From positions 1 through 31,326 of IMG/VR virus record IMGVR_UViG_3300027690_000117: a stretch of DNA of 31,326 nt. One strand, given 5' to 3'. Numbering within the stretch: position 1 is the first letter of the stretch; each line of letters starts with the position of its first letter. Below the pieces are notes generated by a model. That model was given only the letters and a program-made list of their open reading frames with translations. It was not told the origin of the DNA and did no database searches. Of this stretch, positions 2,292 through 21,094 are shown one piece after another. Origin of the DNA: a virus. Taxonomy: Duplodnaviria > Caudoviricetes. A program made the translations under genes and the position numbers.

Positions 2292-4647
2292 CGGACCTCT
2301 CCGCCTCCGTCGCCTGGATGGGAATGTAATAGTGGTCCCGCCCCGCCTGGACCCTGGAAATCTTGTCCGTTGAAATCTTCAGGAGGAATGTGTTGGCCGA
2401 CGGCGATTCATTGCCGTAACAGAAGAAAAACGGCCTTATCCTTCTGGAGGCCGGGTCGAGAAGCCCCATCAAGAAGGTTGAGATTTCCTCCTCGACCGCC
2501 AGGGAATCGGCCAGGAAGGTGAAGCTGAAGTCGTTTTTCGGATCGTGGTCAACCGAAGAGAGGTCGTACCCGCGCGTGACATTCTCGTCGCCGGTGATGA
2601 TCGCCGTGGGGATCAAGCCCGTCCCGACAAACAGTTCCGAGATCTCCAGGTAGCCATCAGGGTTGTCGGGGTCAGTAACCTCCAGGCGCCAATACCTGGC
2701 CGAGCCGGTCAGGTCCAGCTTGGCCATGGTCCCGGAGGCCCAGGCGAGTGAATGAGAGGAGGCGGCCGCCCAGGCCGCCTCCGAGTCTTCATTGCCGTAC
2801 TTGAGGTTGATCGCGGCCCCGCTGCCGAAGTTGTGGTCGAGGATGACAATGGCCGTGGGGGAGGCGGCAGAATCCAGGTTCTCGGGGCCCGCCTCGATCT
2901 GGGCCCTGGTCAGGGTCTCGTCGTAAATCCTCAAGTTCCCAACGTAGCAGGCGAAGCAGGTCGCCCCGCTCTTGAACAGCTCGATGTCGGCCGCTACCCC
3001 GAAAGCGCCGTCGTATGGCGTCTCGGAGCCGTGCGACCAGGCCGCTCCGTTGTAGAACCCGACGTGCATGTCGGCGTCGCCGGTTCCGTCGCCGGGCTTC
3101 TCACTGGCGCTGCCCCACCAGCGGGCGTAGACGATGTAGGTCGTGTCCTTGACCGGGCTCAGGGAGGTTGAATGGGTGTTCGTCCCGTCGTCCATGCAGA
3201 GATAGCAGCTTCCGCCGGCGTCCTTGCGCCAGTAGAGGACCCCGGCCGCCGAGCCGCTGACCGTGGCGATACCGATGGTCTTGTCGTTGGGCGCGTCCGC
3301 CGCGTCGAATCTGGGGGTCCAGTCGAGGTAGAGCACTCCGGCGTCGTCGCTGAAGTTCCCGCTGGCCGCAATGCAGGGCTGGCCCTCCTCGGTGGCCCGG
3401 GTGGCCGCCGCCGTGGTCGTGGGGATCCAGGAGGTAGCAAGAGCGCCGCTTTCATTTTGCGGGCATTCCAGATCCAGGGCAAATGTTCCGTTGAGCCCCA
3501 GGAAGAACAGAAGGGCGCAGTTCGAAGCGGTCTGATTGGCCGTGAAGGTCAGGTCAAACCGCTGCAATTCCGTCGTTACATTGATCGAGGTGTTCAACCC
3601 GACGCTCGTATAGCCGGTGACCTCCCACATGTCGACGGGGATGGTCTTGGCGGTGTCGGCCTTGGCGTAGAATGAGACCGTGTACGTGTTCCCGTTCACG
3701 ACGGATTGAGGGTTGAGTCCCGTGTCGTTCCCGTACACAATGTCCGTGGAAGCGCCACCCTGCGCCGTCACCGATATGCGAACAGCCCGGGCTCCGGTGG
3801 CCGCTCGAATGATCGAGGAGGTGAGGCTGGGGGTAGCGGCGGCCCCACCGGAGATGGAGGCGAACCAATAGGTGTTGACCGCTGCATCCAGCAGGATCCA
3901 ATTCCCGCCGCCCGCGTCATACCACTGACAGGTGGAGTCGATGTCCGAGCACAGGAAAGTGTTGGTCGCCGCCGGCTCAAGAAGGAGGGCCTTGCGCCCG
4001 TTGATCTCCTCGAAGCGCGGCTCGTTCGCCGAGGCTAGGTCAATTAGGCCTGTGTCCGGATCTACGTAGCTGGCCTGGGAGGCCCGGACAAGGGTCAGGG
4101 CGCCCTGGCCGGTCTTCAGGGTCAGGCTGCTTTCCAGCAGGGCCTGAACCAGGAGGGCCTCGTAGGCGCCGCCCAGGTCGGCGGTGATGTAATCGGGCGA
4201 GTCCAGGCCGTCCGACCGCCAGGCCGAGTCCCGGTTCAGATCGGACAGGTTGGCCAGGCCGAAGCTGGCCGCGGCGATGATCACCCAGTTATCGCCGACA
4301 ATAAAGTCATCTCCCTCCCCGGCGACCCACTTGATCTCCACGCCCCGGTCCAGCTCGATGTAAGTGTCGGACGTGGCGACGCCCTCGGCCTCCCAGGTGG
4401 CGGTCGAGTCGCTCCGCTTCCACCTGAAGGTCGCCTCACCGACGCTGGCCCCGCCGCTCACGTCGTCGATCTGGACGCAGTAGGTGACGGTGAACAGTCC
4501 TTCATAGGACCCGGCCGTGTAGGCCACGGCCGAGCCGGTGCCGGTCTTGATCGGGAAGCCGACGCTGCCGCCCTTGACCGATGAGGCGGCCAGGGTCGTG
4601 GCGTCCAGGCCGTCGAGGAGATTGGATTGTCCGAACCAGTATGCCAT
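2284..4647 (-). CDS. Distal tail (Dit-like) protein with inserted carbohydrate-binding domains
   Basis: 787 aa ORF directly after the TMP. A discoidin/F5-8-like fold is split into AWRS...YITADLG and PTAIVILDHNF...RYWRLEVTDPDNPDGYLEISELFVG. The insert carries CBM-like (GNTYTVSFYAKAD) and lectin-like segments. Confidence 0.6.
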   Translation of the reverse strand: MAYWFGQSNLLDGLDATTLAASSVKGGSVGFPIKTGTGSAVAYTAGSYEGLFTVTYCVQIDDVSGGASVGEATFRWKRSDSTATWEAEGVATSDTYIELDRGVEIKWVAGEGDDFIVGDNWVIIAAASFGLANLSDLNRDSAWRSDGLDSPDYITADLGGAYEALLVQALLESSLTLKTGQGALTLVRASQASYVDPDTGLIDLASANEPRFEEINGRKALLLEPAATNTFLCSDIDSTCQWYDAGGGNWILLDAAVNTYWFASISGGAAATPSLTSSIIRAATGARAVRISVTAQGGASTDIVYGNDTGLNPQSVVNGNTYTVSFYAKADTAKTIPVDMWEVTGYTSVGLNTSINVTTELQRFDLTFTANQTASNCALLFFLGLNGTFALDLECPQNESGALATSWIPTTTAAATRATEEGQPCIAASGNFSDDAGVLYLDWTPRFDAADAPNDKTIGIATVSGSAAGVLYWRKDAGGSCYLCMDDGTNTHSTSLSPVKDTTYIVYARWWGSASEKPGDGTGDADMHVGFYNGAAWSHGSETPYDGAFGVAADIELFKSGATCFACYVGNLRIYDETLTRAQIEAGPENLDSAASPTAIVILDHNFGSGAAINLKYGNEDSEAAWAAASSHSLAWASGTMAKLDLTGSARYWRLEVTDPDNPDGYLEISELFVGTGLIPTAIITGDENVTRGYDLSSVDHDPKNDFSFTFLADSLAVEEEISTFLMGLLDPASRRIRPFFFCYGNESPSANTFLLKISTDKISRVQAGRDHYYIPIQATEAERSGV

Positions 4648-4648
4648 G

Positions 4649-7600
4649 TCAGGCCCTCGCTCCGCGCTCGTAATACTTGATCCAGCTCACGACCTTGCTG
4701 CCCACCCGGTCCATGACCCGCGGGTCGTCAATGGACACGCCGTCGACGTGAACGTGGACCTCGTAGTTGCTGGTCACGCTCGACTGGGCGGGCGGCGAGG
4801 CCTGGCCCAGGGAGATGAGCTTGTTCAGGTAGGCCGGGATGACCGCCTCGCCCTGGTGGAGGGTGTAGCGCCCGGTCCGGGGAACGTAGGTGGTGCCGTG
4901 CTGGTAAGACTTGTTCTGGCCGCTCCTGTCAGGCTGTCCGGGCTTTGGAGTGGTGGGCTTATCCGTGCTATCCGCACCTCTTGAGGAAGCGGCTCTGACC
5001 CTATTAGCCCAATCCGAACCCATAATTGTTGATACGTAATTCCAGAAGTCCCCTTCAGCCCCGGAGGCCTGAAAGGTTATCCGCAGCATAGCCACTATCA
5101 GCCTATCAAAGGCCTCAATGAGCTCGTTGATCGGATTCTCTAAGTTGAGCGCCTCCGCCAACTCCTCTGCACGTTCGATTGTGGCCGCCATGACATCCCG
5201 ACTACCGGCCATGGCCGCGTCCAAGGCGGTCAGGTCATCTCCGGAGAGTTGCTGTAGATAGGTATCCAGCCTGGCCAAGGTCGAGTCCGTGAAATCAGTG
5301 AAGGTGAAACCGGTGGCCTCTATAGCCCGCCGCAGATCATCATCATTCTGAAGTAATGATCTGGTCGCTTCATTACTCAAGGCCGCCAAAGCAGCGCCAG
5401 CTTGAGATGCATCCTCTCCAGTCCACCAAGCCTGTAAAGCCTCGTATTCGCCCATCTGAGCCCTGAGCCCGGCCACGGTCCCACGCCGACTTGCGGCAGC
5501 CCCCAACACGTTCGCCCGTTCGTCTTCGGACAGGCCCCCGAATACCAGGGCGTTCCAGGAGTTCTTAAGGGTGTTAAGGGTGGCGGTCAGCCGGTCGGTT
5601 CCGTTCTCCAGCTGGGTCGCCTCGGCCCTGAGAATGCCCGCAGACGTGGTCAGGTTGGACACGTAGTCCTGGATGTCTTTGATGCTGTTCGCCAGGGATT
5701 CGTCGTCGCCCGAGAGCATGTTGCTCAGGACATTGGCGAACATGTTCCTCAGGCTGGTGAAGAGCTGGTTGAGGTTTTCGTCGTTGACTATCGCGTCGTA
5801 CATGTCCCCCAGGGCTTCCTGCCAGTATGAGGTGTCGCCCAGATCGTCCAGGATGTCCTGAAGGCTCTCCCGGGCCTGGCCGATGGATATGGCCGCGTTG
5901 GTCCCGGAAGCCCCGCCGTTCGCGGCCGTGTTCACCTCGCCCTCGAACTCCCTGACCGCGTCGCGGAACAGGTTGACCATCTCCTCAAAGGTGATGGTCC
6001 CGTTCCTGAACTGGTCCAGGATGGGCTCGAACTGCTCCCTGAGCTTGAGGTCTGAGGCCTCCCGGAGCAGGGCCTCGATGGTCCCGGACTGGCCCTGGAG
6101 CCACTGAGCCAAGGGCCAGTCGCCCCTCTCCATGTTGGAGCCATACCACTCGTTAAAGCTCCGCTCCAGGGCGTCGATCTGGTTGAAGACGTCGTACTGC
6201 TCGGGAATCCGGGTGTACATCTCGTACCGTTCCGGGCTCAGGTTGGCCCGGGCGTAGGCGTTCATCTGCTCCCGGGTCATCCCGCCGGCCCCGGCCAGCC
6301 AGGTGTAGTGCTGGTAGCCGGTCATGGCCCGGCGGAAGTAGTCCTCCCAATTGGTCTCGTCGGCCCCTTGAAGCAGGTGGAGCCGGCTGACGAAATCGCC
6401 CCAGTAAGGCCCCCGGGCCGCTTCCAGCATCTCCTGCTGGGAGCCGTAGCGCTGGCGCATCCTGGAGGTCCAGGAGGTGTTGCCCGAGCCGATCCCCAAG
6501 AACTGACCGATCATGGGACCGAACTGGGATATGGCCAGAGGCACGCCGTACAGGGCGGCCGGGCCCATCCAGGAGCTCCAGAAGGCGGCAAAGGAGCTGA
6601 AGGCAGAAGCAGCAGCGGATGTTGCCCCAGTCACCCCCGATATGGCGGCCCCGAACATGTCGTCAACCGCCGCCGCAAGAGAAGATCCGGAGCCAAAAAA
6701 GCTGGCGATGGAGCTTCCTATATTGCTGAAGAGCCGGCCGATGGCCGTGTCCTTGAAGACCCCGCCCAGGGCGCTCCTGATCCAGCCGCCCAAGGTCTGG
6801 CCCAGGCTCTTGGCGCTCAGGCCTTCCAGAACGCCCTTGAAGGCGTCCTTGAACAGGGTGTTGAAGGTGGTGGCAAAGAATTCGCCGAGGTAGTTGACGA
6901 CCACCTGGGAGAAGGCCAGGGCAAAGATGTCGCCCACGGCCTGGCCGAAGTTCTTCCAGGCGTCCTTGGCCCCGGTCATCCAGTCGGCCAAGCGCTGGGC
7001 GATGGCGCTCAGGGTGTTGCCCCAGGCTTGCTCGAAGACCCGGAAATACTCGCCGCACTCGTCAACGTAGCGCTCCTGGTTGGCGATGAGCCGGCCCGTC
7101 TTGGCCTCGTCCAGGGCCAGGCAGGTCTCGGCCGAGTCGGCGTAAAGACCTGCGGTCGCCTCAGCCGTCTGGTCGGCGGCCTGCTCCTGCCTGCGCAGGT
7201 TGTCCAGGTACTCGCCGGTGGTCTCCCGGTCCTGGCGGAGGAAGTCGGAGAAGGAGTCGGCCTGGATCTCCTTGACCGCCTCGGTGGTCTGTTGGACCGC
7301 CTCCCGCCGCTCCCTCTGCTCGTCGTTGATGCTGGCGATCCTCTCCAGACCCTGGTTCTCGAAGTCCCCGGTCCAGAGCTCCAAGTCCTTGCCTATAGCC
7401 GTGGTGGTGATCCGGCTGCTCTCGACCAGCCCGGAATTAAGGTTGGAGTAGGCCCGTCCCTGGTCCTGCGTCCCAAGGACGACATTGTTCGTGTACTTGC
7501 GCCAGCTCCCTTGGCAGACAAAAAGCGAATCAGTGGTCCCGTCTCTGAAACGGAGCACCGCTTGAAAAACGTTGTCCATTGCCTTAGTGGCTTGGTCGCT

Positions 7601-8497
7601 GTCCTGGACAAAGTTATAGGCGGCCGGCTGGATGGAACCTCCCTGGCCGCCTTGGAAGGACATGGGCTCGGCGGGCGATGGCGTCCAGCCTTCGGGCGGG
7701 GCTACCGGTTGATTTGTCCTATCCCTCTGCTCCTTTAGTCTCTGAATGGCCTCACGGTAAGCATTTCGTTCTTTTTCCAAGTATTCGCCGCCGTTCCCGC
7801 CGAGCTGAGCATCCGCATAATCTCTCTCGAAATCTAGGCGGCTCACGAAGTCCCGCAGCTCTTTTTGTGTCGGTTCAGGAAGAAATTCAATATCCTTGAT
7901 AGGGACGTTCAACCATTCAGCCGCCTTTTGTTGGAGTATTTGGATTTGGGCATCTCTCTTCTCTTTCATCCAGCCCAGTGCTGATTTCGCCAGATCAACG
8001 CTCCGTTCGAAAGATATTACGAGTTCGCCTATATACCATTCCAAGAAGTGCAATATATATGTTCGAGGATTGTCGAAAGCCTCAGCAGTAAGCCGCATAC
8101 TATCAAGCAACTTTTCGGGAATAATCTCCTGTCCCCTCCGAACACCCTCTCTGTAGTACGGGTCGAAGTCGGAAAGCATGTTGCGGCGGTACCGGGGTCG
8201 CCCTGTTGATGACGAACTCTCAGAATTGCCTGAAGATTCATTATATGCCTGTGAAGTTGCACCAGGCTGGGGCAGCATCTCTTGGATAGACTTCGCTTTT
8301 CTGCCCGCTTCCTCGAGCGCCCGGCCTAACTCGTTAGTTGCAGTGGTGGCCGCTAACTGAAAGCTTGTATTTAGTTGAGCGATGATGGTGGTTGAAGCCT
8401 CAATCTCTCTCTTGGTAATAGAGGTCACTTGCTTCAAAGCTTTCTCATATGGCCCAATGTCGGCCATTACCTTGATTCTCAAATCTGACAGATCCAT
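4649..8497 (-). CDS. Full-length tape measure protein (TMP-D), ~1282 aa
   Basis: Long Ala/Gly-rich helical ORF just upstream of the distal tail genes. TMP-type N-terminus (DLRIKVMADIGPYEKAL) and C-terminal motif YQHGTTYVPRTGRYTLHQGEAVIPA. Start moved to ATG 8497, behind a GAGAGGG RBS. Confidence 0.88.
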   Translation of the reverse strand: MDLSDLRIKVMADIGPYEKALKQVTSITKREIEASTTIIAQLNTSFQLAATTATNELGRALEEAGRKAKSIQEMLPQPGATSQAYNESSGNSESSSSTGRPRYRRNMLSDFDPYYREGVRRGQEIIPEKLLDSMRLTAEAFDNPRTYILHFLEWYIGELVISFERSVDLAKSALGWMKEKRDAQIQILQQKAAEWLNVPIKDIEFLPEPTQKELRDFVSRLDFERDYADAQLGGNGGEYLEKERNAYREAIQRLKEQRDRTNQPVAPPEGWTPSPAEPMSFQGGQGGSIQPAAYNFVQDSDQATKAMDNVFQAVLRFRDGTTDSLFVCQGSWRKYTNNVVLGTQDQGRAYSNLNSGLVESSRITTTAIGKDLELWTGDFENQGLERIASINDEQRERREAVQQTTEAVKEIQADSFSDFLRQDRETTGEYLDNLRRQEQAADQTAEATAGLYADSAETCLALDEAKTGRLIANQERYVDECGEYFRVFEQAWGNTLSAIAQRLADWMTGAKDAWKNFGQAVGDIFALAFSQVVVNYLGEFFATTFNTLFKDAFKGVLEGLSAKSLGQTLGGWIRSALGGVFKDTAIGRLFSNIGSSIASFFGSGSSLAAAVDDMFGAAISGVTGATSAAASAFSSFAAFWSSWMGPAALYGVPLAISQFGPMIGQFLGIGSGNTSWTSRMRQRYGSQQEMLEAARGPYWGDFVSRLHLLQGADETNWEDYFRRAMTGYQHYTWLAGAGGMTREQMNAYARANLSPERYEMYTRIPEQYDVFNQIDALERSFNEWYGSNMERGDWPLAQWLQGQSGTIEALLREASDLKLREQFEPILDQFRNGTITFEEMVNLFRDAVREFEGEVNTAANGGASGTNAAISIGQARESLQDILDDLGDTSYWQEALGDMYDAIVNDENLNQLFTSLRNMFANVLSNMLSGDDESLANSIKDIQDYVSNLTTSAGILRAEATQLENGTDRLTATLNTLKNSWNALVFGGLSEDERANVLGAAASRRGTVAGLRAQMGEYEALQAWWTGEDASQAGAALAALSNEATRSLLQNDDDLRRAIEATGFTFTDFTDSTLARLDTYLQQLSGDDLTALDAAMAGSRDVMAATIERAEELAEALNLENPINELIEAFDRLIVAMLRITFQASGAEGDFWNYVSTIMGSDWANRVRAASSRGADSTDKPTTPKPGQPDRSGQNKSYQHGTTYVPRTGRYTLHQGEAVIPAYLNKLISLGQASPPAQSSVTSNYEVHVHVDGVSIDDPRVMDRVGSKVVSWIKYYERGARA

Positions 8498-8719
8498 TGT
8501 CACCCTCTCACTTGGCTGAAGGAGAAACTCAACCACAAAGAGGCAAATAGAGCGGCCGGGGCGGTTTGAGCAGCCCGCACAGCTCAACAAGCGCCACCAC
8601 GTTTTTCGGTGTTTGTACCCTGATTATTGGGGTAATAGATTGTTACACACTTCAAGTGTGTGCAACAGCTCGCTGATATTTGACCTGCGCACCCTGTTTA
8701 CGGTGAGCATTCAGGGGCC

Positions 8720-9067
8720 TTAAAAATAGCTCATGATGCCAAACGTCAGGTAACTGAAAACGAAAATGGCCACGGAACTGAGCATGACTATGAGGCCGTA
8801 CCTCTTCCTACCTCTCGAGTACCCTAATCGCCCAAGGATGAAAGCGGCCACGTTAAGTGGAATACATGTTCCGGGGGGCATGATCAAAGTCCAAAATAAG
8901 AGGGCCAAGCCGATCCGGCTGAGGCGCAATGCTATCCGTTCCTGGCTACCCCGGGGGTAGGTGTTCTTCGCCAGCCCAAGCCAAGTTGTCGCGACAATAG
9001 CCGCAGGCAAACCAGCCAGCATCAGGTAGCCCCACCAGAATGGAACGCTCGAAGGTTGGCTCAACAC
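8720..9067 (-). CDS. Small multi-pass membrane protein (moron-like)
   Basis: 115 aa with 3-4 hydrophobic segments, GGAGGG RBS before GTG, lower GC, and its own promoter at 9142-9170. Not homologous to the five-member family. Confidence 0.75.
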   Translation of the reverse strand: MLSQPSSVPFWWGYLMLAGLPAAIVATTWLGLAKNTYPRGSQERIALRLSRIGLALLFWTLIMPPGTCIPLNVAAFILGRLGYSRGRKRYGLIVMLSSVAIFVFSYLTFGIMSYF

Positions 9068-9141
9068 TGTTCCCTCCTAGAGTATTACTTTGAGAGTTCA
9101 GGTTTGCCAGGCGAATTGTAACCTCCAGCCCGCGCCTTTCT

Positions 9142-9170
9142 ATTAAATCAAATGCGAGATATCGTGGCAA
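9142..9170 (-). promoter_or_regulatory. Sigma70-like promoter
   Basis: Minus strand reads TTGCCA-17 nt-TTTAAT with an extended -10 TG, the same architecture as the other cassette promoters. Confidence 0.6.
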
Positions 9171-9180
9171 CCTAAAACTC

Positions 9181-9387
9181 TTATGCAGTTTCCGGCTGAG
9201 CGTCCCCTTCCAGCGCTTGCCCCAGCACCACCGCCGCAGCGTTTACTTTCTGGAGACTTAAGCCAGACTTGGCTTCCATGGCTGCTATGGCCTCGAACCC
9301 CGGCCGGACGGTGGCAGGCATGCGGGCCGTGGCCAGCTCCAGGGGCCCAAGATTGGCTGCAACCTTTACTGTAAGATTCTCGGTCAT
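9181..9387 (-). pseudogene. Truncated TMP N-terminus (TMP-C, 68 aa)
   Basis: MTENLTVKVAANLGPLELATARMPATVRPGFEAIAAMEAKSGLSLQKVNAAAVVLGQALEG is nearly identical to the TMP-A N-terminus, then the ORF stops. Confidence 0.85.
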
Positions 9388-9492
9388 TTGGTGTACTTTC
9401 CTTTTTGTCTCCAGTGTCGGCCCCAAGGGGCCGCCGGGGTCTATACTGGGCAATCAAAAAGAGACCCGTGTGGGTCTCTCTTCTCAGACTTG
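9205..9492. repeat. Direct repeat of ~15026-15312 (terminator + TMP RBS + TMP N-terminus)
   Basis: Near-identical ~290 bp on direct comparison of the two regions. Confidence 0.9.
9456..9479 (-). terminator. Rho-independent terminator after the membrane gene
   Basis: AGAGACCC-acac-GGGTCTCT followed by a T run on the minus strand. Confidence 0.75.
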
Positions 9493-9547
9493 TTTGCCAC
9501 TCGTTTTAAGCAGGCGTAAAACGTTACAATCTGTTTATTATGACACC

Positions 9548-10120
9548 TCAATTCCGCATTTTTTCAAGTGTATCAATACTGATTAAAAGAGCAGATCCTT
9601 TTAATAGATTACTCCCTATAGGCTCGACCCCAAACGGAGCCTTATAGGCCAGTCCAAGATCTCCTATGCCCATCTTCAAGCGTCCGGAGAAAACAACCTT
9701 GTCCCAGGTTCGGAGACCTGCCACGTCCGCCTTGGAGGCGAGGGCTGGTGTTAACTCACCATAATACGCTATCTTTACGCCGCTGTACGCGGAAACAATC
9801 ACAATTTCAACCCTGCCGTGGTGCTCGACGATTCCGGCAGGGTCAACCCTGCCCCGCCAATTATCGATTTCTGTCCCGGTCGATCTGACGTAGCTCTTGG
9901 ACCACTCCCAGGTCCGGTACCAAACCTTGTCCCTTGTCTCTTCTCGCCAGGCCCCATCGTATTCCCGCAAGAACCCCCCTAGCTGCTTCTCGAACAGGAC
10001 TTGCCCGGTCGGCCGATCATCATGCCACCAACGTATGCGTTCAGGGACCTCATAGAATGCTAACATGGCTATAAACAAAAGAGGCCACCACCATTTCCCC
10101 CTCTTCGCCTGATCAAACAC
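9548..10120 (-). CDS. Membrane-anchored protein, cassette family member M5
   Basis: 190 aa, N-terminal TM helix, family motifs DRP..QV.FE, I.NWRG, L..WDKVVFSGR. AGGAGGGG RBS before GTG. Confidence 0.85.
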   Translation of the reverse strand: MFDQAKRGKWWWPLLFIAMLAFYEVPERIRWWHDDRPTGQVLFEKQLGGFLREYDGAWREETRDKVWYRTWEWSKSYVRSTGTEIDNWRGRVDPAGIVEHHGRVEIVIVSAYSGVKIAYYGELTPALASKADVAGLRTWDKVVFSGRLKMGIGDLGLAYKAPFGVEPIGSNLLKGSALLISIDTLEKMRN

Positions 10121-10266
10121 AACCCCTCCTCAGCAGCGCCCGCCGGCCTCCGGCTCTCCCCTTGTCTCTCTGGTCAGCCCTTCCTTACCCCCTTTTATTA
10201 AGCCACAAACGACATCTCGCGGCAAGCCTAAGTTATATTGAATTCAAACGATCTTTTCTTTGCTTA
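10113..10266. repeat. Direct repeat of ~15974-16124 (promoter + 5' leader + RBS)
   Basis: Near-identical ~150 bp. The promoter core recurs at 13074-13140, and partial copies lie at 16933-16948 and 17561-17610. Confidence 0.9.
10197..10225 (-). promoter_or_regulatory. Sigma70-like promoter of M5
   Basis: TTGCCG-17 nt-CTTAAT with extended -10 TG; identical to 13074-13102 and 16057-16085. Confidence 0.6.
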
Positions 10267-10269
10267 CAT

Positions 10270-12216
10270 CTATATAGCCGCCGCGCCCAACCCTCCCACG
10301 GGACCGCCGGCAGTCAGGGCGATCTCGCCGGGTACGGCCGTGCCGCCGAACAGGCCGGACAGCCAGCTCCAGCCCCGGCTCAGCCAACTCCCCAGGCGGG
10401 AGAAGATGCTCTCCGTGCCGCCGCTCCCCCCCTGGAACAAGGAGAGCACCAGGTCGATCGGTCCCCGGACCCGGCCCTGGGCGTCCCGGCCGAAGACCGC
10501 CCCGAAGACCCGGTTGACCAGGTCCTGGGAGAAGGCCTGGATGAACATCCGCCTGACCGTGTCCAGGAAGTTGGCAAGGTCGATCTTGTTGCCCGAGAGG
10601 AAGTCGGCGAACAGGTCGGCCATCCGGGAGAGGGTGTTGCTCCAGGCCTGCTCGTAGAGCTGGAAGGACTCGCCGCACTCGTCAACGTAGCGCTCCTGGT
10701 TGGCGATGAGCTGGCCCGTCTTGGCCTCGTCAAGGGCCAGGCAGGTCTCCGCCGAGTCGGCGTAAAGGCCGGTGGTCGCCTCGGTCGTCCGGTCAGCGGC
10801 CTGTTCCTGCCTGCGGAGGTTGTCCAGGTACTCGTCGGTGGTCTCCCGGTCCTGGCGGAGGAAGTCGGAGAAGGAGTCGGCCTGGATCTCCCTGACCGCC
10901 TCGGCGGTCTGTCGGGTCGCCTCCTGCTGTTCGTCCTGGCCGGCCTGGTAATCGGCGTTGATGGTTTGGAACTGAACCCCTAAATCCCCGGCAAAGTCTT
11001 GCCAGTCCAGGCCCATTGTCGTGGTGGCGATCCGGCTGCTCTCGGTGATGCCGGTATTGAGTAAGGAGTAAGCCTGTTCCTGGTCCTGGGTTCGAAGGAC
11101 AAAATCGGTCGAGTATCCGAGCAAGCTGTCTCCGCAGAGCGAAAACATAGCCTCAGTCGTGTCTCCTAAACGAATCACCGATTGAGAAGCGCCGTCTATT
11201 GCATCAACGACCTGGGCGCTGTCCTGGGGCAATCTCAAGAAGGCTTGCTGAACGATGCCGCCGGAGCCGAAGCCTTGGAAGGACATGGGTTCCAGGAGCT
11301 GTTGCGGCGAGCTGCCGGGCTGGCCGATGTTGTCGCCGGACATGACATTAAGCATTGTCTCTAGTTCCGCCCTGCGAGCACTTCCCGGTGTCCGCCGCCG
11401 CATCAGCTCCACGAGGTTGGCTTTGTATTGCTGCAGATTTTCCGGCATCTGCTCCGGGCGGCGCATGGCCTGCGCATAATTGCTTAATCCAATCTGGCGA
11501 GCCTCCGGGGAAAGAAGGCGGAAATCTTCATAACTCATTCCGAACCATTTAGCGGTGGCTTCATCTGACGGCCGGTTCATTTCCTGCTTTATTTCCGCTA
11601 TGCGCTCCTGAAAGTCCTTGTCTGAGTCTTTCCATTGCGCGATTGCTGTGCCTATTCCCGCCAAGGCGCTGATCGCAGCAGATACTGGATTACTAGCCCC
11701 CAGGGCGGATGCCGCTAAGCCGGCACCAAAACTCACCGCACCCGCGCCGACCGCGCCCATAGGAGGCTCTGCGTGTCCAAGGGAAAAGCGGCTAAGTCCA
11801 TGAATTAATAAAGCCGCTGAGTCCGAGATATATTTCTTCACACCGGCCCAAATACCAGGTTTGGGGACGTTATCTGACCCTGTAGCGAGGCTTACGCGTT
11901 CACTTGTGTCTCCACTACGAGCGATAGAGTCATTCATGGACTTCGTTGCGTCGGTAGCCGATTGCGCTGCTGTGGTAATCAAGTCCAGAGTGTTCCGCGC
12001 GGACGCTGCGGCCCCCGCCGAAGCTTCGCTAATTCCTTCCAGTTTCAGCCCCAGCTCTATAGCCGCTGCGGTCGCCTTTTGAAATCCCGTGCCCACTCGG
12101 GCTTCCATTAAGGCTACGGCCTCGAAGCCTCGACGAGAAATCGCATTCATCCGCCCCATCGCCTGCTCGTAGGGCCTGGTGTCGGCCACGAATTTAACCA
12201 TCAAGCTTTCGGTCAT
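10270..12216 (-). CDS. Short tape measure protein paralog (TMP-B), ~648 aa
   Basis: TMP-type N-terminus MTESLMVKFVADTRPYEQAM. Shares the EPMSFQG...QADSFSDFLRQDRE...YVDECGE block with TMP-A and TMP-D, and the C-terminal VPGEIALTAGGP.GGLG.AAI with TMP-A. Start at ATG 12216 behind AAGGAAGG. Confidence 0.8.
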   Translation of the reverse strand: MTESLMVKFVADTRPYEQAMGRMNAISRRGFEAVALMEARVGTGFQKATAAAIELGLKLEGISEASAGAAASARNTLDLITTAAQSATDATKSMNDSIARSGDTSERVSLATGSDNVPKPGIWAGVKKYISDSAALLIHGLSRFSLGHAEPPMGAVGAGAVSFGAGLAASALGASNPVSAAISALAGIGTAIAQWKDSDKDFQERIAEIKQEMNRPSDEATAKWFGMSYEDFRLLSPEARQIGLSNYAQAMRRPEQMPENLQQYKANLVELMRRRTPGSARRAELETMLNVMSGDNIGQPGSSPQQLLEPMSFQGFGSGGIVQQAFLRLPQDSAQVVDAIDGASQSVIRLGDTTEAMFSLCGDSLLGYSTDFVLRTQDQEQAYSLLNTGITESSRIATTTMGLDWQDFAGDLGVQFQTINADYQAGQDEQQEATRQTAEAVREIQADSFSDFLRQDRETTDEYLDNLRRQEQAADRTTEATTGLYADSAETCLALDEAKTGQLIANQERYVDECGESFQLYEQAWSNTLSRMADLFADFLSGNKIDLANFLDTVRRMFIQAFSQDLVNRVFGAVFGRDAQGRVRGPIDLVLSLFQGGSGGTESIFSRLGSWLSRGWSWLSGLFGGTAVPGEIALTAGGPVGGLGAAAI

Positions 12217-12284
12217 TTGTTGTCCTTCCTTTTTCCCTGCTGGCGGTAGCACGGCTGATAGGAGGAGGGAACTGTTCAACGACG

Positions 12285-12310
12285 AAAAGAGAGAGACGTC
12301 TGGTCTCTCT
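12285..12310 (-). terminator. Probable terminator after M4
   Basis: AGAGAGAC-cagac-GTCTCTCT followed by CTTTT. Confidence 0.6.
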
Positions 12311-12415
12311 TACAAGGAGTTATTATGCTTCAGTTCAAGGGAATTGGAGCTGCTTAATGGAGGAACCCAACCTTTATCTACAGAGGCCTTCCTCCCATAT
12401 TACCTTTGTGTCAGC

Positions 12416-12997
12416 CTAGTCACTCGCCCTGGCAATACGCTCCAGTTCAATCAAAAACTCTGGCCTCGCTAACCTGTCTCTATCGCTCCGGTAGGCCTCT
12501 GCCACTCGGGCAAAGCCTGTTACTGGCACGTATATGGACGGCTTGAATCGCCCTGTGAAAACAACATCATCCCATTCACCCAATCCAGATAAGGCTTTGT
12601 GGATTGGGTCCCCCGGAGGAAGTTCGGTGCTATAATGAATACCAGCGCACAAATATTCTGAATAAATAACTAAATACATATTGCCATTAGCCGTTTGGAG
12701 CATCGGTAATAACGCCTTGCCGCGCCAGTTGTTGATCTTCCATTTAGCGGCCTTGGCGTATTCCCCGGTCCATTCACCCGCCTCATAGAAAATCTTTGTT
12801 TTCTCCGCTTTGCTCTTGGCCGCCTCATAGTCTTTTAAAAAGCGACAACGTTGGTTCTCGAAGGCTACCTGGTCCGCCGGGCGCCGGTCGATCTGGTAGT
12901 GTCTGGGCTCCCAGTAATCGAAGAAGCTTCTTGTTGTAAAGACCGCCGCCATTCCAATCAGTCCACCAACTAAACCCGACAATAGCATTTTTTTCAT
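12416..12997 (-). CDS. Membrane-anchored protein, cassette family member M4
   Basis: 193 aa, N-terminal hydrophobic helix, DRRPADQVAFENQR, INNWRG, LGEWDDVVFTGRFK. Confidence 0.85.
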   Translation of the reverse strand: MKKMLLSGLVGGLIGMAAVFTTRSFFDYWEPRHYQIDRRPADQVAFENQRCRFLKDYEAAKSKAEKTKIFYEAGEWTGEYAKAAKWKINNWRGKALLPMLQTANGNMYLVIYSEYLCAGIHYSTELPPGDPIHKALSGLGEWDDVVFTGRFKPSIYVPVTGFARVAEAYRSDRDRLARPEFLIELERIARASD

Positions 12998-13073
12998 AAT
13001 TTATTCCCTTCAGCCGCTACCCTCCCCAGTTATCCCCACCTCCTTGACCGCCGGCTACTCCAACCTCCTTTCC

Positions 13074-13102
13074 ATTAAGCCACAAACGACATCTCGCGGC
13101 AA
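13074..13102 (-). promoter_or_regulatory. Sigma70-like promoter of M4
   Basis: Identical 29-mer, TTGCCG-17-CTTAAT. Confidence 0.6.
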
Positions 13103-13144
13103 GCCTAAGTTATGTTGAATTCAAAAGACTTTTCTTGCTTGCGG

Positions 13145-15208
13145 CTATATAGCCGCCATGCCCAACCCGCCCATGGGACCGCCGGCGGTCAGGGCGATCT
13201 CGCCGGGCACGGCCGCGCCGCCGCCGAACAGGCCGGTCAGCCAGCTCCCCGCGCTGCTGAAAAGCCGGCCCACGGCCGTGTCCTTGAAGATCCCGCCCAG
13301 GGCGCTCCTGATCCAGCCGCCCACGGTCCGGCCCAGGCTCTCGGCGCCCAGACCCTTGAAGATGCCCTTGAAGGCGTCCTTGAACAGGGTGTTGAAGGTG
13401 GTGGCAAAGAACTCGCCGAAGTAGTTGACGACCACCTGGGAGAAGGCCAGGGCAAAGATGTCGCCCACGGCCTGGCCGAAGTTCTTCCAGGCGTCCTTGG
13501 CCCCGGTCATCCAGTCGGCCAAGCGCTGGGCGATGGTGCTCAGGGTGTTGCCCCAGGCTTGCTCGAAGACCCTGAAATACTCGCCGCACTCGTCAACGTA
13601 GTGCTCCTGGTTGGCGATGAGCTGGCCCGTCTTGGCCTCGTCCAGGGCCAGGCAGGTCTCGGCCGAGTCGGCGTAAAGGCCGGTGGTCGCCTCGGCCGCC
13701 CGGCGGGCGGCCTCTTCGTGCTCCTCCTGGCTGGCAAGGTAGGCGGTGGTGGCCTCCCGGTCCTGGCGGAGGAAGTCGGAGAAGGAGTCGGCCTGGATCT
13801 CCTTGACCGCCTCGGTGGTCTGTCGGGTCGCCTCCTGCTGTTCGTCCTGGCCGGCCTGGTAACCGGCGGTTATTTCCTGAGTCTGGCCCAGGAGGTAATC
13901 GCTCCAGGCGCGCCAGGTCTGGCTGTTGGCCGCAGTGGTGATCCGGGTGCTCTCGGTGATGCCGGTATTGAGTAAGGAGTAGGCTTGTTCCTGGTCCTGG
14001 GTTTGAAGTAAGACATCGGTCGAGTATCCGAGCAAGCTGTCTCCGCAGAGCGAAAAAATAGCCTCAGTCGTGTCTCCTAAACGAATCACCGATTGAGAAG
14101 CGCCGTCTATTGCATCAACGACCTGGGCGCTGTCCTGGGGCAATCTCAAGAAAGCCTGCTGAACGAGGCCGCCGGAGCCGAAGCCTTGGAAGGACATGGG
14201 CTCCAAGAGCTGTTGCGGCGAGCTGCCGGGCAGGCCAATGTTGTCGCCGGACATGACATCCAACATTGACCCTAGTTCCGCCCTGCGGTTGACCTCCAAT
14301 TGGGCTTGGTTCTCCAGTTCCATCAGGTCAAAAGCAGGCTGGCGCCTTTCACGCCACATATGTGCTACAAGGTTCGCCTTGAACGATGACAGGCTCTCGT
14401 TTTGGATTTTGCCGCGGATCTCGGTGTCCAGGTAGACCCGCTTCATTCTTTCGCGGTCCTCGTCAGAGAATGTAAGAAACTCTTCATATGGCATCTCAAA
14501 CCAGGTTGCAGTGTTTTGCTCTATAAATTTCTGCCTTTTCTCCCTCAAGTATTTTAGCCGTTTTTGATTCTCATCCCCTCTCGTTAATTCCTGGGAATAT
14601 GACATTACATAAGGAACAGAATAGGGAGCTATTTTAAGACCGAGGCGGTTTAATAAAATACCTGTTAAAACTGGGATTATACTATTTAACGGTTCCTTAA
14701 GCCGTCCTCCAGTGAAACCACTTATAATTTCTGCTATTTCTCTATCAAGTAGTTCTTTCCATTCGTCGGTGCTTAGGCTGGCAGGAAATCTTTCGCGGGC
14801 TCCAAAACCGGCTTCTGCAGGAATCGACCTGGGACTCGTCCTTGAAGCTTCCTGCACGTCGTCTTCTGGCCACACTATTGTTCGGGATGTATCGGACGAA
14901 CCGTTGACTTTAGTGAGGGATTCAGCCACTGCCTCGATGCCGTTTGCAGTTGCCTGGGCCTCGGCCGCAACTAGATTAAGCCTTTTCTGTATGGATATCG
15001 TCGCATCTTCCCCTACCTTGCCTATCCCTTCCAGCGTTTGCCCCAGCACCACCGCCGCAGCGTTTACTTTTTGGAGACTTAAGCCAGACTTGGCTTCCAT
15101 GGCTGCTATGGCCTCGAACCCCGGCCGGACGGTGGCAGGCATGCGGGCCGTGGCCCGCTCCAGGGGCCCAAGATCGGCCCAGATCTTGACGGTAAGATTC
15201 TCGGTCAT
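13145..15208 (-). CDS. Short tape measure protein paralog (TMP-A), ~687 aa
   Basis: Starts MTENLTVKIWADLGPLE at ATG 15208 behind an AAGGA RBS. The central/C-terminal block is nearly identical to TMP-D (QADSFSDFL...GRLFS). Lacks the TMP-D C-terminal half. Confidence 0.8.
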   Translation of the reverse strand: MTENLTVKIWADLGPLERATARMPATVRPGFEAIAAMEAKSGLSLQKVNAAAVVLGQTLEGIGKVGEDATISIQKRLNLVAAEAQATANGIEAVAESLTKVNGSSDTSRTIVWPEDDVQEASRTSPRSIPAEAGFGARERFPASLSTDEWKELLDREIAEIISGFTGGRLKEPLNSIIPVLTGILLNRLGLKIAPYSVPYVMSYSQELTRGDENQKRLKYLREKRQKFIEQNTATWFEMPYEEFLTFSDEDRERMKRVYLDTEIRGKIQNESLSSFKANLVAHMWRERRQPAFDLMELENQAQLEVNRRAELGSMLDVMSGDNIGLPGSSPQQLLEPMSFQGFGSGGLVQQAFLRLPQDSAQVVDAIDGASQSVIRLGDTTEAIFSLCGDSLLGYSTDVLLQTQDQEQAYSLLNTGITESTRITTAANSQTWRAWSDYLLGQTQEITAGYQAGQDEQQEATRQTTEAVKEIQADSFSDFLRQDREATTAYLASQEEHEEAARRAAEATTGLYADSAETCLALDEAKTGQLIANQEHYVDECGEYFRVFEQAWGNTLSTIAQRLADWMTGAKDAWKNFGQAVGDIFALAFSQVVVNYFGEFFATTFNTLFKDAFKGIFKGLGAESLGRTVGGWIRSALGGIFKDTAVGRLFSSAGSWLTGLFGGGAAVPGEIALTAGGPMGGLGMAAI

Positions 15209-15275
15209 TTGGTGTACTTTCCTTTTTAGCTCCAGTGTCGGTCCCAAGGGGCCGGCGGAGTCTATAATGGGCAAT

Positions 15276-15300
15276 AAAAAAGAGACCCGTATGGGTCTCT
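15276..15300 (-). terminator. Rho-independent terminator after M3
   Basis: AGAGACCC-atac-GGGTCTCT followed by TTTTT. Confidence 0.75.
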
Positions 15301-15396
15301 CTTCTCAGACTTGCTTACCGGCCGTTTATACGGTTTTAAAAGGAGCTAGCACAACTCACATCTTTCTTTCTTAAAGACGTTCTTAATTTTTAAACA

Positions 15397-15981
15397 CTAG
15401 TTTTCTATTTTGTTAACAGTATCTAATTCGATCAGAAGAGCACTTTCTTCCAATATATTACTCTCGCTCAGCTTAGTCCCAAGAGGCGCTTGGAAAGCCA
15501 GGCCCTGGGCCCATAAACCCCAATTGAAGCGTCCTGAGAAAACAACCTTGTCCCAGGTGCGGAGGTCGGCCACAGCCGAACTTTTTGCAATATCCCGAGG
15601 TAAATGACCATAATACCAAATTCTCATGCCGCTGAACTTGGAAACGATCACCAACTCGATCTTGCCGGAATGCTCCACGATCCCGGCAGGATCGACCCTG
15701 CCCCGCCAGTCCTTTATCTTCATCCCGGCGGTCCAGGTGTACACCCTGGTCCACTGCCAGGCCCTGCGGCACACTTCGGCCTTCGTGGCTCCCCGCCATG
15801 CTCCGTTATATTGATCGAGGAAGTACACCAGTGTGCTCTCGAATTGCACCTGCGCGGGCGGCCGGGGATCGTGTCCCCAGCGGAGGCTGTCCCTGAATTC
15901 ATCGTAGGCTTGTAACGCAAATAAGCCTGCCAGCCCTACAATGACCCCCCACCATTTCTGCTCCTTCATCCAGTCAAACAC
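15397..15981 (-). CDS. Membrane-anchored protein, cassette family member M3
   Basis: 194 aa; closest to M5 (shared WRGRVDPAGIVEH and LRTWDKVVFSGR). Confidence 0.85.
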   Translation of the reverse strand: MFDWMKEQKWWGVIVGLAGLFALQAYDEFRDSLRWGHDPRPPAQVQFESTLVYFLDQYNGAWRGATKAEVCRRAWQWTRVYTWTAGMKIKDWRGRVDPAGIVEHSGKIELVIVSKFSGMRIWYYGHLPRDIAKSSAVADLRTWDKVVFSGRFNWGLWAQGLAFQAPLGTKLSESNILEESALLIELDTVNKIEN

Positions 15982-16056
15982 AACCCCTCCTCAGCAGCGC
16001 CCGCCGGCCTTAGGCTCTCCCTTGTCTCTCTGGTCAGCCCTTCCTTACCCCCTTTT

Positions 16057-16085
16057 ATTAAGCCACAAACGACATCTCGCGGCAA
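16057..16085 (-). promoter_or_regulatory. Sigma70-like promoter of M3
   Basis: Identical 29-mer, TTGCCG-17-CTTAAT. Confidence 0.6.
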
Positions 16086-16145
16086 GCCTAGGTTATATTG
16101 AATTAAAAGACTTTTCTTTGCTTAAGGCAGGCTAACCCGGGGATG

Positions 16146-16224
16146 TTCCTTAGAGCGCTTGCCCCAGCTCCACCTCCGCTGCAGTCGTTTTCTGGAGGCT
16201 CAAGCCAACCTTGGCAGCCGCTTC
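16146..16224 (-). pseudogene. Degenerate TMP N-terminal relic (TMP-E)
   Basis: Manual translation gives EAAAKVGLSLQKTTAAEVELGQAL*G, which aligns with EAKSGLSLQKVNAAAVVLGQALEG of TMP-C (TMP-A differs by one residue). Absent from the ORF track. Confidence 0.75.
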
Positions 16225-16230
16225 TAGTTT

Positions 16231-16857
16231 TCAGAAAATCGAACCAAGCCAATCTGTTATAGTATAATAAGGGACTTTGTTAATCTTGTCTAATTCAATC
16301 ACAAACTCAAGCTTCTTCAGGACCCCTTCAGATTGCATTGAATAAATCTTATCTCCGGAGCCCAAGACCACGGCCGGTCCGCCCGAACGCGATTTGAACC
16401 GTCCGGAGAACACGACCCTGTCGCCATTGTAGGTCCCTGCCAGTCCCCGGTGGATTGGGGCGTCGTGTTCTACCTCGCCCCTGTAAAGAACCGGCGCTCC
16501 GTTGAGATCGGAAATGATGCTCACCAGGACGGTCCGGCCGTCATCGCCCATGCTGAACCCGCCCAGCTTTCCCCGCCAGTTGTTGACCCTGCCGCCGAGC
16601 ATCTCAGCTTAGCCTCTGGTCCAGCTTTCAAACTGGCGGTATACCTCCTCTCGCTCCTGGCCGCTCTTGGTCCGTTCGAATCTCTTGAGGACGAAGTTTC
16701 GCTCCAGCTCAAAGGCCGCTTGTTCAATGGGCTGCTGGTCACGCTCCGGCCTGAAATCGATCCATTCCCCCCGATTGAGGTACAGGATGTAGGCACCAGT
16801 CGCAACAGCAAATGCGGTCGTAGCCCATCCGATCCATTTCCCCAAGCATAGAGCCAC
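16231..16857 (-). pseudogene. Cassette family member M2, split by an in-frame TAA
   Basis: ORFs 16609-16857 and 16231-16602 are in the same frame. WTRG*AEMLGGRVNNWRG aligns with WTREYAETAGWRINNWRG of M1, so the stop replaces a conserved Tyr. Confidence 0.85.
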
Positions 16858-16971
16858 CTGGCCCCCTTAAGCCCCTGCCGCAAGTGGACGGTCGTTTGGG
16901 TTTGCTAACCAGCCGATTTCAAATCCCTCTCTATTAAGCCACAAACGATGTCTGTAGGAAGTAGGTCAGCT

Positions 16972-17562
16972 TCAATCCTGGACCTTGGCAATCTGCTCGA
17001 ATTCAGTCAAAAATGCCGGCAATTCCAAGATGCTTTTTTCACTGGCCCTGGCCTCGGCCACGCCCGTAAACCCCAATCCGGCCACTCTGTTAGGCGGCTT
17101 AAACCGCCCTGAGAAAATGACATTGTCCCATTTACCCAGGCCGGCTATAGAATTATAGACTTGCTGGCCGAGAGGCTCATCTGCCTTGTACCAAATGCCA
17201 AAGCGGCTGTACTTGGAATAGATCGACAGCTCCGCACGCCCGACCTGCACAATCCGCGCCTTGAACACCCGTCCACGCCAGTTGTTGATTCGCCAGCCCG
17301 CTGTCTCGGCGTATTCCCGGGTCCACTGGACGGCGCGGTAGTAGACAGCGGACTTTTCCGCGTCTGTTTTAGCCACCTTGTATTCTTTGAAGAAGAGCGC
17401 CCGCTGGTTCTCGAACAGCACCTGCTCCGGCGGCCGCCGGTCGACACGCCACCGCTGCCAGTCAGTGTATGAATCGTAACGATTCAGCCCATAAGATATT
17501 GCTGCAATCAATGCCGTGGAAATAAGCGCCATCCACCTTTGCTTGAGTGACAATTTGCGCAC
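16972..17562 (-). CDS. Membrane-anchored protein, cassette family member M1
   Basis: 196 aa, N-terminal TM, DRRPPEQVLFENQR, INNWRG, LGKWDNVIFSGRFK. Closest to M4. Same RBS/leader as M3 and M5. Confidence 0.85.
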   Translation of the reverse strand: MRKLSLKQRWMALISTALIAAISYGLNRYDSYTDWQRWRVDRRPPEQVLFENQRALFFKEYKVAKTDAEKSAVYYRAVQWTREYAETAGWRINNWRGRVFKARIVQVGRAELSIYSKYSRFGIWYKADEPLGQQVYNSIAGLGKWDNVIFSGRFKPPNRVAGLGFTGVAEARASEKSILELPAFLTEFEQIAKVQD

Positions 17563-17601
17563 AACCCCTCCTCAGCAGCGCCGGCTCCCAACCTCCTTTG
17601 C

Positions 17602-17630
17602 ATTAGGCCACAGATGGCATATTGTCACAA
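17602..17630 (-). promoter_or_regulatory. Sigma70-like promoter of M1
   Basis: TTGTGA-17 nt-CCTAAT with extended TG; a diverged copy of the cassette promoter. Confidence 0.5.
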
Positions 17631-18088
17631 GAGTTGTGGTTCAGAAAATCATTTCTTTTGAATGTATCTTTATTAGCTTTTCATCTCTATATTTGTTTCA
17701 GCCATCCGGACAAAACACGGCTAGCCCCCGGCGCTGGGCTTTCTCCCCGGTTCCCTGAATAACTCATGGTCTCCAGGCAACCTCCTCTTTCTCGGCCCTG
17801 CCCCGGCCACGTCCAGGCCCGCCAATCCGGCCCCTGTCCCGGCCGGCCGGGCCGCCCTTGGCCCGCCCGGGGCCGCCTGGAGGCACACCTCCCAGGGCAG
17901 ATAGCCCTCGGGCCAGCTCATCAACCCGTCTCGTCCGTCCGCGATCATCTCCTGGCCCCTCCCTGGGTAGTCCCTTGTCCGGCCCGGCCGGGCGCCTAGA
18001 CCCACCCGGCCCGCGGCCTCGGGGTCTCACTGAATCACAGACGATATTTCGTGCCAAGGCCGGCCGGAGCTCTCGCGCCCGGCCGGCC

Positions 18089-18430
18089 TCACCTCTTTTT
18101 CCCGAAGGCCCGCCGGCCCAGGGCCCTCATCGAGGCCGGGTCCTGGGGCGTGCCCTGGCTGGCCCGGTCCTCCTCTCTCTTGTTCTGGCTCAGCTCGAAG
18201 CCCTTGCGCTCCCGCCACTGGCGCTTGATCTGGCCGTAGATCAGCTCCAGGCGGTCCCGGCGCGGCAGGGCCCTGACCTGGTGGGGGGCCAGGCCCACCT
18301 CCAGGCAGAGGCCGACCAGGGCCTCGGTCTCGCTCACCGGCGGCAGGCCGGCCGTGCCGTCCTGCTCGGCCCACCGCTTCAGATCGGCCCAGACCTCGGC
18401 CGTCAGGCCGAGGTCTCGCTGGACAAATTT
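18089..18430 (-). CDS. Frameshifted C-terminal extension of the tail assembly chaperone (gpT-like)
   Basis: The -1 frame is open from the slippery site (FVQRDLGLTAEVWADLKRWAEQDGTAGLPPV) into ORF 18089-18337. Confidence 0.8.
   Translation of the reverse strand, partial: KFVQRDLGLTAEVWADLKRWAEQDGTAGLPPVSETEALVGLCLEVGLAPHQVRALPRRDRLELIYGQIKRQWRERKGFELSQNKREEDRASQGTPQDPASMRALGRRAFGKKR
18391..18430 (-). promoter_or_regulatory. Programmed -1 ribosomal frameshift signal
   Basis: In-frame heptamer A AAT TTG (18430-18424), 7-nt spacer, then a perfect 11-bp hairpin AGACCTCGGCC-TGAC-GGCCGAGGTCT. Confidence 0.85.
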
Positions 18431-18972: not shown

Positions 18973-18982
18973 TTGGCCTCCT

Positions 18983-19552: not shown

Positions 19553-19585
19553 TTCTCTCTCCTTGTCTCAGGGTTTTCTAATGGC

Positions 19586-21092: not shown

Positions 21093-21094
21093 GT

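Follow-up and report, generated by a model that had tools for sequence, protein, structure and literature searches.

An array of tape measure protein 5' cassettes interleaved with membrane protein genes in a candidate domesticated particle cluster of Desulfarculia

The tape measure cassette array

The stretch of DNA analyzed here (the window) is the 31,326-nucleotide IMG/VR record IMGVR_UViG_3300027690_000117, an internal stretch of a 666-kb contig that runs from the start of a probable small terminase gene to the stop of a fibre-like gene. Between its tail chaperone genes and its distal tail gene lies an array in which genes related to the tape measure protein (TMP) alternate with genes for putative membrane proteins. 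Read along the minus strand, the open reading frame (ORF) map and the sequence give the order M1, M2, E, M3, TMP-A, M4, TMP-B, M5, C, X, TMP-D, which is the order that the original prediction had proposed. The array comprises four intact M genes encoding predicted OB-fold membrane proteins, one broken M gene and one gene, X, with three putative transmembrane segments, and these are interleaved with two intact half-length TMP genes, one stub, one relic and one full TMP. The features of the array, in the direction of reading, are as follows.

18029..18057, minus strand: promoter-like motif copy that heads the array, just 3' of the second tail chaperone gene
17602..17630, minus strand: promoter-like motif (variant) 5' of M1
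16972..17562, minus strand: M1, 196 aa, putative N-terminal membrane anchor and predicted OB fold; no TMP piece after it
16933..16957, minus strand: partial promoter-like motif 5' of M2
16231..16857, minus strand: M2, an M paralog interrupted by a single in-frame TAA at 16609-16611
about 16148..16230, minus strand: TMP 5' relic E, 76-79% identical over 68 nt to the starts of TMP-A and stub C
16057..16085, minus strand: promoter-like motif 5' of M3, TTGCCG-N17-CTTAAT with a TG extension (by eye)
15397..15981, minus strand: M3, 194 aa
15281..15302, minus strand: terminator-like hairpin and T run 5' of TMP-A
13145..15208, minus strand: TMP-A, 687 aa, an intact TMP 5' half (orphan cassette)
14534..14833, minus strand: hypervariable block of TMP-A, residues 126-225, which holds a hydrophobic segment and is replaced in the related locus L002
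13409..13678, minus strand: putative recombination anchor of TMP-A, codons 511-600
13074..13102, minus strand: promoter-like motif 5' of M4
12416..12997, minus strand: M4, 193 aa, an M paralog
12292..12310, minus strand: terminator-like hairpin 5' of TMP-B
10270..12216, minus strand: TMP-B, 648 aa, an intact TMP 5' half with the same stop point as TMP-A and a 45-residue uncharged Gly/Ala segment
10197..10225, minus strand: promoter-like motif 5' of M5
9548..10120, minus strand: M5, 190 aa, an M paralog
9460..9481, minus strand: terminator-like hairpin 5' of stub C
9181..9387, minus strand: TMP stub C, 68 aa, 92% identical to TMP-A residues 1-61
9142..9170, minus strand: promoter-like motif 5' of X
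8720..9067, minus strand: X, 115 aa, with three hydrophobic segments and no kinship with M, directly 5' of the full TMP
4649..8497, minus strand: TMP-D, 1282 aa, the sole full-length TMP, adjoining the distal tail gene

The intact paralogs M1, M3, M4 and M5 share 29-49% identity (BLASTP). TMP-A, TMP-B and TMP-D match the TMP families of PHROGs, and TMP-B scores above threshold for Pfam Tape_meas_lam_C. TMP-A and TMP-B are 5' halves that end at a common point, GGPxGGLGxAAI, and not full paralogs, which refines the proposed array of TMP paralogs. Promoter-like motifs lie upstream of M1, M2, M3, M4, M5 and X and terminator-like hairpins upstream of TMP-A, TMP-B and stub C, and these sequence patterns bear out the repeat unit of promoter, M gene, terminator and TMP start that had been described. 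A generic terminator scan picked up one of these hairpins only, and its 11 sites were not in excess of the 14.7 expected from shuffles. A 21-nt pattern with up to two mismatches finds five sites in the window against a mean of 0.005 in 200 shuffles, the pattern having been derived from the very window sites scored, with the M1 and M2 copies remaining unmatched. The M genes, with a predicted promoter and terminator of their own between the chaperone and TMP genes, have a placement of the type known for gp15 of phage HK97.

It is unlikely that the array is a product of misassembly, as its repeats are 74-92% alike rather than identical. Over 6964 nt from TMP-A to TMP-D a second assembly (L003) agrees with the window at 100% identity, and eight listed contigs of sequencing run X1, which may come from the same sample as L003, have depths of 25.4-33.4. 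No cassette-skipping joints with long sides were found in the run X1 contigs, a form of data that loses rare variants.

Allele exchange, a second array and the partner proteins

The related locus L002, which is 92.5% identical to the window in the neck-tail region, contains two cassettes only: M3' followed by TMP-A', which has the same stop point as TMP-A, and then a new paralog, M6, followed by a full TMP. It joins the region upstream of M1 (17602-17630) straight to the M3 leader. The full TMPs of L002 and the window have a common 3' half and unrelated 5' halves: identity between the L002 TMP and TMP-D is 89-93% past the anchor in most windows of 90 nt, and before the anchor it is 16-59%. The anchors of orphan and full TMPs are 96-100% identical, and TMP-A is 98% identical to TMP-D at codons 511-600 and far less similar upstream, with a perfect match of 116 nt between TMP-A (13421-13536) and TMP-D (6890-7005). 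The mosaic shows directly that 5' parts of TMP genes have been exchanged, and the exchange is likely to run via homologous recombination at the anchors. Scans for Pfam- and PHROG-type families recognized no site-specific recombinase in the window. The TMP is thus a conserved carrier with a sharply bounded variable domain, located at the N terminus and not at the C terminus, and the anchor common to the orphan modules and the swap onto the full gene are as found in systems of the contact-dependent inhibition (CDI) and Rhs type. The crudely estimated ratio of nonsynonymous to synonymous divergence (dN/dS) in the orphan anchor regions is 0.6-1.3, and that of control genes by the same method is 0.25-0.68.

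Replacement is also found within an orphan. TMP-A residues 126-225 retain 43% amino acid identity with TMP-A', and 51 of the 69 synonymous sites differ, which is saturation, while synonymous divergence (dS) in the flanks of this block is 0.18-0.19. The same replaced block occurs in sequencing runs X2 and X3. The adjoining residues 226-335 are 87% identical to TMP-A' and M3 is 93% identical to M3', figures that rest on few alleles. Run X2 contains a further replaced block near the 3' end of TMP-D (4906-5425).

A tail-tube profile search yielded 12 loci, one of which, L006 in genome G003 (G003:C3), has an array, at 11937-13980, with the same anchor and promoter motif as the window. It contains a 119-nt TMP fragment that matches the full TMP of G003 itself at 98% identity, in the segment that is homologous to the window anchor, a TMP 5' stub and a full TMP of 1471 aa, and a hairpin-like element is repeated after each TMP piece. 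Three paralogous signal-peptide proteins, N1-N3, are encoded on the opposite strand before the 1471-aa TMP, and the two best matches of the promoter motif in the G003 genome lie upstream of N1 and N3. The N family has no relatives past its three members, and neither N nor X has a match in PADLOC or NCBIfam. The array is real and recurrent in at least two species. The promoter spacer (16057-16085 and its copies) holds an imperfect palindrome that is conserved between the window and G003 and may be an operator for some regulator.

Long TMPs with upstream accessory genes occur together in all three cases (the window, L002 and L006), and short TMPs without such genes likewise in all three (L004, L005 and L007, where TMPs of 238-325 aa come straight after the chaperones with no intervening gene). 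Seven more distant loci have a single ORF of 612-784 aa at the TMP position, which leaves no room for an array, and L012 has no recognizable TMP.

The M proteins match nothing in Pfam, PHROGs, NCBIfam or PADLOC. A profile of the family finds 134 matches in many domain architectures, often with zinc ribbons, and in 100 of 136 proteins a hydrophobic segment precedes the domain, in most cases as a predicted membrane anchor or signal peptide; none of the three genomes G001-G003 has a match. The AlphaFold model of M3 (predicted local distance difference test score, pLDDT, 88) consists of a helix at residues 4-35, a helical hairpin and an OB fold. Fold searches with it returned OB folds, at best with a Z of 8.4 and a root-mean-square deviation of 2.4 over 84 residues, and the top Foldseek match was the protease inhibitor Potempin A (E 6e-4), a common fold being no indication of function. 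From the charges on either side of the anchor, the OB domain is predicted to lie outside the cytoplasm, facing the periplasm. The M genes are under purifying selection, with dN/dS of 0.17 for M3 and M3' and of 0.23-0.38 in eight of ten paralog pairs, the other two being saturated; the M tree is poorly resolved, with support for one of four inner branches. An M homologue at L031:1425-3930 (G060:C27) has a staphylococcal-type nuclease gene on one side and an XRE repressor gene on the other, in a prophage-like region with a beta clamp of its own.

In the variable region, TMP-A', TMP-B, the full TMP of L002 and the G003 TMP have 20-45 uncharged, Gly/Ala-rich residues, and TMP-A has a shorter uncharged run of 15 residues. 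TMPs pass into the inner membrane, and membrane defences act on them (PMC3594210, PMC13190303).

The surrounding particle gene cluster

The array is embedded in a set of head and tail genes.

29663..31326, minus strand: large terminase and probable small terminase, the first cluster genes in G001-G003
18089..27778, minus strand: portal, scaffold, major capsid, GT9 glycosyltransferase, DUF4254, adaptor, head closure, neck, probable tail terminator, tube and two chaperones
1..4647, minus strand: distal tail protein with CBM_4_9 insert, two tail-tip genes and fibre-like gene

Most genes of the 18089..27778 block have orthologues in the clusters of G001-G003, with identities of 81-86% for the capsid and 68-76% for the portal. 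The capsid gene is single-copy in all three genomes of one order, the tube profile matches 4 of the 95 genomes of the class, and among 401 genomes sampled across the phylum the only further capsids were distant ones. In G001-G003 the gene ahead of the cluster is CheZ-like, and on its far side G001 and G003 have genes for acyl-CoA dehydrogenase and sigma-70. The head and tail modules of G003 are approximately 54 kb apart, with purA, rpsA, radA-like and other host genes between them. Among the 66 flanking proteins scanned in G001 and G003, of 108 called, none belongs to an integrase or phage replication family, and family scans found no integrase, repressor or replication module inside the window; phage functions at the locus are confined to packaging and structure in G001, G003 and the window. 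A fixed host locus, vertical inheritance and the split in G003 are features of gene transfer agents (GTAs) and of PBSX-type elements. Judging from the loci of the orthologues, the window element is probably domesticated and not a prophage, and an active prophage is disfavored by the same loci, with their shared host flanks and lack of integrase and replication genes. A headless tailocin was suggested by the tail genes of L006 alone and is ruled out by the head module elsewhere on the same contig; terminase, portal, scaffold and capsid are present in the window and in G001-G003.

Scans of IMG/VR with the capsid, distal tail, TMP and M sequences turned up no free phage that carries any of them, and a search of INPHARED with the tube protein gave no match; these narrow searches may have missed near records. 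Scans of viral contigs with a single tube query gave no result, and the best E value of a PDB sequence search was 0.093. The probable small terminase matches no helix-turn-helix (HTH) family at E<=1 and only Sf6_terminase at E 0.14, with an HTH-like stretch visible by eye.

Several other features of the clusters were observed. The candidate GTA-like clusters of Desulfarculia (G001:C2:914500-930200; G002:C24, C73 and C297; G003:C3:236300-243000 and 158700-175500; G004:C1:3671900-3686600) are syntenic and replication-less, with TMPs of 238-325 aa in G001, G002 and G004, and the G004 cluster includes an M15 peptidase and a coat of the P22 type. In the window the capsid gene is followed directly by the genes for the GT9 glycosyltransferase (23379-24569, minus strand), which is 70% identical across G001-G003, and DUF4254 (22922-23197, minus strand), a pair that possibly glycosylates the capsid or a surface. 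The distal tail protein of 787 aa (2284-4647, minus strand) has an insert of approximately 430 aa with CBM_4_9, and its orthologues have 347 aa and lack the insert. Between the large terminase and portal genes is an insert of three genes (27963-29332, minus strand), likely to be a toxin-antitoxin-chaperone defence module: a 97-aa probable HicA-type gene, assigned by position in the absence of a family match, HicB, assigned by Pfam, and a SecB-like chaperone with weak matches in Pfam, NCBIfam and PADLOC (PD-T4-9_C). At this terminase-portal junction the insert of G002 is a different one (L030 4444-5309). The low-GC gap before the adaptor gene contains two 130-nt repeats (22181-22307 and 22659-22790) that are 71% alike and a near-perfect palindrome of 32 nt (22756-22787), and Rfam has no match for this gap.

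Interpretation and comparison with known systems

The original prediction proposed that each M protein recognizes a cognate TMP variable domain, either for superinfection exclusion with a reservoir of swappable TMP alleles or for immunity to a toxic domain borne by the TMP, and drew a parallel to prophage membrane proteins and HK97 gp15. The mosaic 5' halves of the window and L002 substantiate the reservoir, and variation in cassette number and content was found in L002 and L006, so that these elements of the overall interpretation are retained together with the repeat unit and the position of the M genes between the tail chaperone and TMP genes. The prophage framing is not, because the cluster looks domesticated and replication-less, and this moves the weight from superinfection exclusion to killing and immunity.

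The explanation that we favor, at somewhat less than an even chance, is a PBSX-like particle in which the swappable N-terminal membrane segment of the TMP would be the toxin and the upstream genes would confer immunity. Recombination at the anchor would be likely to load different spare 5' halves onto the single full TMP, and the cell would release head-tail particles, as PBSX does. The variable segment, a Gly/Ala-rich hydrophobic hairpin in most alleles, would insert into the inner membrane of the target cell and kill rivals, while M, N and X, expressed from their own promoters, would protect the producer. An upstream M protein, predicted to face the periplasm, would bind the ejected segment as its cognate immunity protein, and TMP pieces may decay while their immunity genes stay. 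This layout would be the mirror image of CDI and Rhs loci, because the variable part is N-terminal and the 3' end of the TMP abuts the tail-tip genes. A non-replicating particle of this kind would give polymorphism an arms-race reason, and self-exclusion gives none.

Several observations weigh against this explanation. Family scans, which covered enzymatic toxins, detected no toxin family in the variable region, which looks TMP-like. The active TMP-D has no Gly/Ala hairpin and is preceded by X and not by an M gene, and no TMP piece follows M1. The resemblance between M and N is weak (hhalign probability 9%). M3 is 93% identical to M3' of L002 though residues 126-225 of TMP-A have been replaced, which is a poor fit to strict upstream pairing on that block. 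The sole clear M homologue in the 95 class genomes has an XRE repressor for a neighbor in a region that looks like a prophage, a setting shared with exclusion genes, and the good conservation of the head and packaging genes (81-86% for the capsid) is as expected of a GTA. The three long-TMP cases may go back to one origin.

The repressor-linked homologue in G060 and the lack of a toxin domain count in favor of entry exclusion keyed to TMP alleles without killing, which is a rather unlikely explanation though the best of the others. M, N and X would act like gp15 or Ltp and block DNA entry by particles or phages with the matching TMP allele, the cluster being a GTA or a remnant fed by phage alleles, as its GTA-like anatomy allows. 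The place of the M genes and their own promoters and terminators are those of the HK97 gp15 moron (PMC3594210), and regions of the TMP set sensitivity to the membrane defence SNIPE (PMC13190303). However, a non-replicating particle gains little by excluding itself, the short-TMP relatives manage without such genes, and the narrow searches described above found neither a free phage in IMG/VR by way of the capsid, distal tail, TMP or M nor the tube protein in INPHARED.

The conservation of M3 beside a changed TMP-A block is also what would be expected, as is the decay seen in the relic, the stub, the broken M2 and the TMP-free M1, if envelope accessory genes had merely piled up as morons at a recombination hotspot, with TMP pieces as passive scars and M proteins directed at unrelated targets. 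The crude dN/dS of 0.6-1.3 in the orphan anchors and the wide distribution of the M family, with 134 matches in many architectures, agree with this, yet we consider it unlikely. TMP-A, TMP-A' and TMP-B are intact ORFs of 648-687 aa, the full TMP itself has switched its 5' half at the anchor, and G003 repeats the same design with another gene family, which argues against passive accumulation.

The intact ORFs of TMP-A, TMP-A' and TMP-B, with their ribosome-binding-site-like leaders and conserved stop, could alternatively mean that the TMP-A and TMP-B proteins are made and enter the tail with the full TMP, as additional chains of a hetero-oligomeric tape measure or as cargo. This is improbable: they lack the C-terminal half, including an end that is conserved even in short TMPs, and the C terminus of the F-pyocin TMP anchors in the tail tip (10.64898/2026.02.24.707460), while TMP-A and TMP-B each lie behind a terminator-like hairpin and G003 retains only fragments. 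An address system, in which M would be the recipient's receptor for a matching TMP allele and DNA would be delivered to kin only, could draw on the GTA-like anatomy, the conserved packaging genes and the anchored OB fold of M, but is likewise improbable given that the short-TMP relatives have no such gene here, that the M profile finds none of G001-G003 and that no precedent was found in the open-access literature searched.

Returning to the toxin and immunity explanation, a wider proposal, which we hold still more tentatively, is that a GTA-like particle of Desulfarculia was turned in one lineage into a strain-specific weapon, with a TMP extended by approximately 1000 residues, a swappable N-terminal membrane toxin, upstream orphan cassettes and banked OB-fold immunity genes. 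If true, a tape measure would here be the carrier of a polymorphic toxin system, and the locus would be a case of dedicated immunity to a non-contractile phage-tail killer. The short- and long-TMP forms in one family may record a shift from gene transfer to warfare. Killing by non-contractile tail particles has been described as an unsettled question (10.64898/2026.02.24.707460). The locus isolates a TMP segment of approximately 100-200 residues in several natural alleles, each beside a candidate binder, and a small matrix of alleles and partners could therefore serve to test killing as well as exclusion. Arrays of TMP 5' cassettes with partner genes were not found described in the open-access literature searched, subscription journals being outside its scope; there, even under exclusion, a recombination reservoir of TMP entry domains was not found. 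The locus is in addition a candidate domesticated particle cluster in Desulfarculia.

Orphan CDI arrays retain immunity genes and reload via recombination (PMC3150448). The window resembles the CDI and Rhs orphan arrays described in that source in having one full gene, partial copies with a conserved anchor, retained partners and decayed modules. Unlike them, it has a phage TMP as carrier, the variable part is N-terminal, the orphans and partners are upstream and the partners have a promoter motif of their own; no enzyme toxin was found by the family scans. The C-terminal toxin with a downstream immunity gene is replaced here by a full TMP that adjoins the distal tail gene and has its partners upstream. 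Like the HK97 gp15 moron (PMC3594210), the M genes are membrane protein genes with a putative promoter and terminator between the tail chaperone and TMP genes, but gp15 is one gene in a replicating phage, and the replication-less cluster described here has six, accompanied by spare TMP halves.

The PBSX tail is contractile. No sheath family was matched in the window, and no TMP cassette array of PBSX was found in the literature searched. PBSX of Bacillus subtilis packs host DNA and acts like a bacteriocin (PMC7667829), and the window resembles it as a probable defective head-plus-tail element of the host chromosome. GTAs have packaging and structural genes on split loci and are hard to tell from prophages by sequence (PMC11841831). 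The cluster is like them in that its genes serve packaging and structure only, its loci can be split, every sampled species of the clade has it and the TMP is short in G001, G002 and G004; it differs in its phage ancestry, in the TMPs of 1282-1471 aa with cassette arrays in the window and G003 and in a probable small terminase with an HTH-like stretch seen by eye.

MuF polymorphic toxins (PMC5576092) are likewise virion-borne polymorphic proteins with an immunity gene that have been proposed to act against competitors, but they are head-associated, have predicted enzyme toxins and belong to replicating prophages, and orphans are not mentioned in that paper. F-type tailocins are domesticated non-contractile tails for which TMP ejection on contact has been proposed (10.64898/2026.02.24.707460); they are headless, and the source does not mention immunity; terminase, portal and capsid are kept here. 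As far as its gene content and arrangement indicate, the locus appears to behave like an orphan-module polymorphic system whose toxin would be N-terminal with immunity upstream rather than C-terminal with immunity downstream, placed like gp15 but built as an array, in a particle that is not a headless tailocin.

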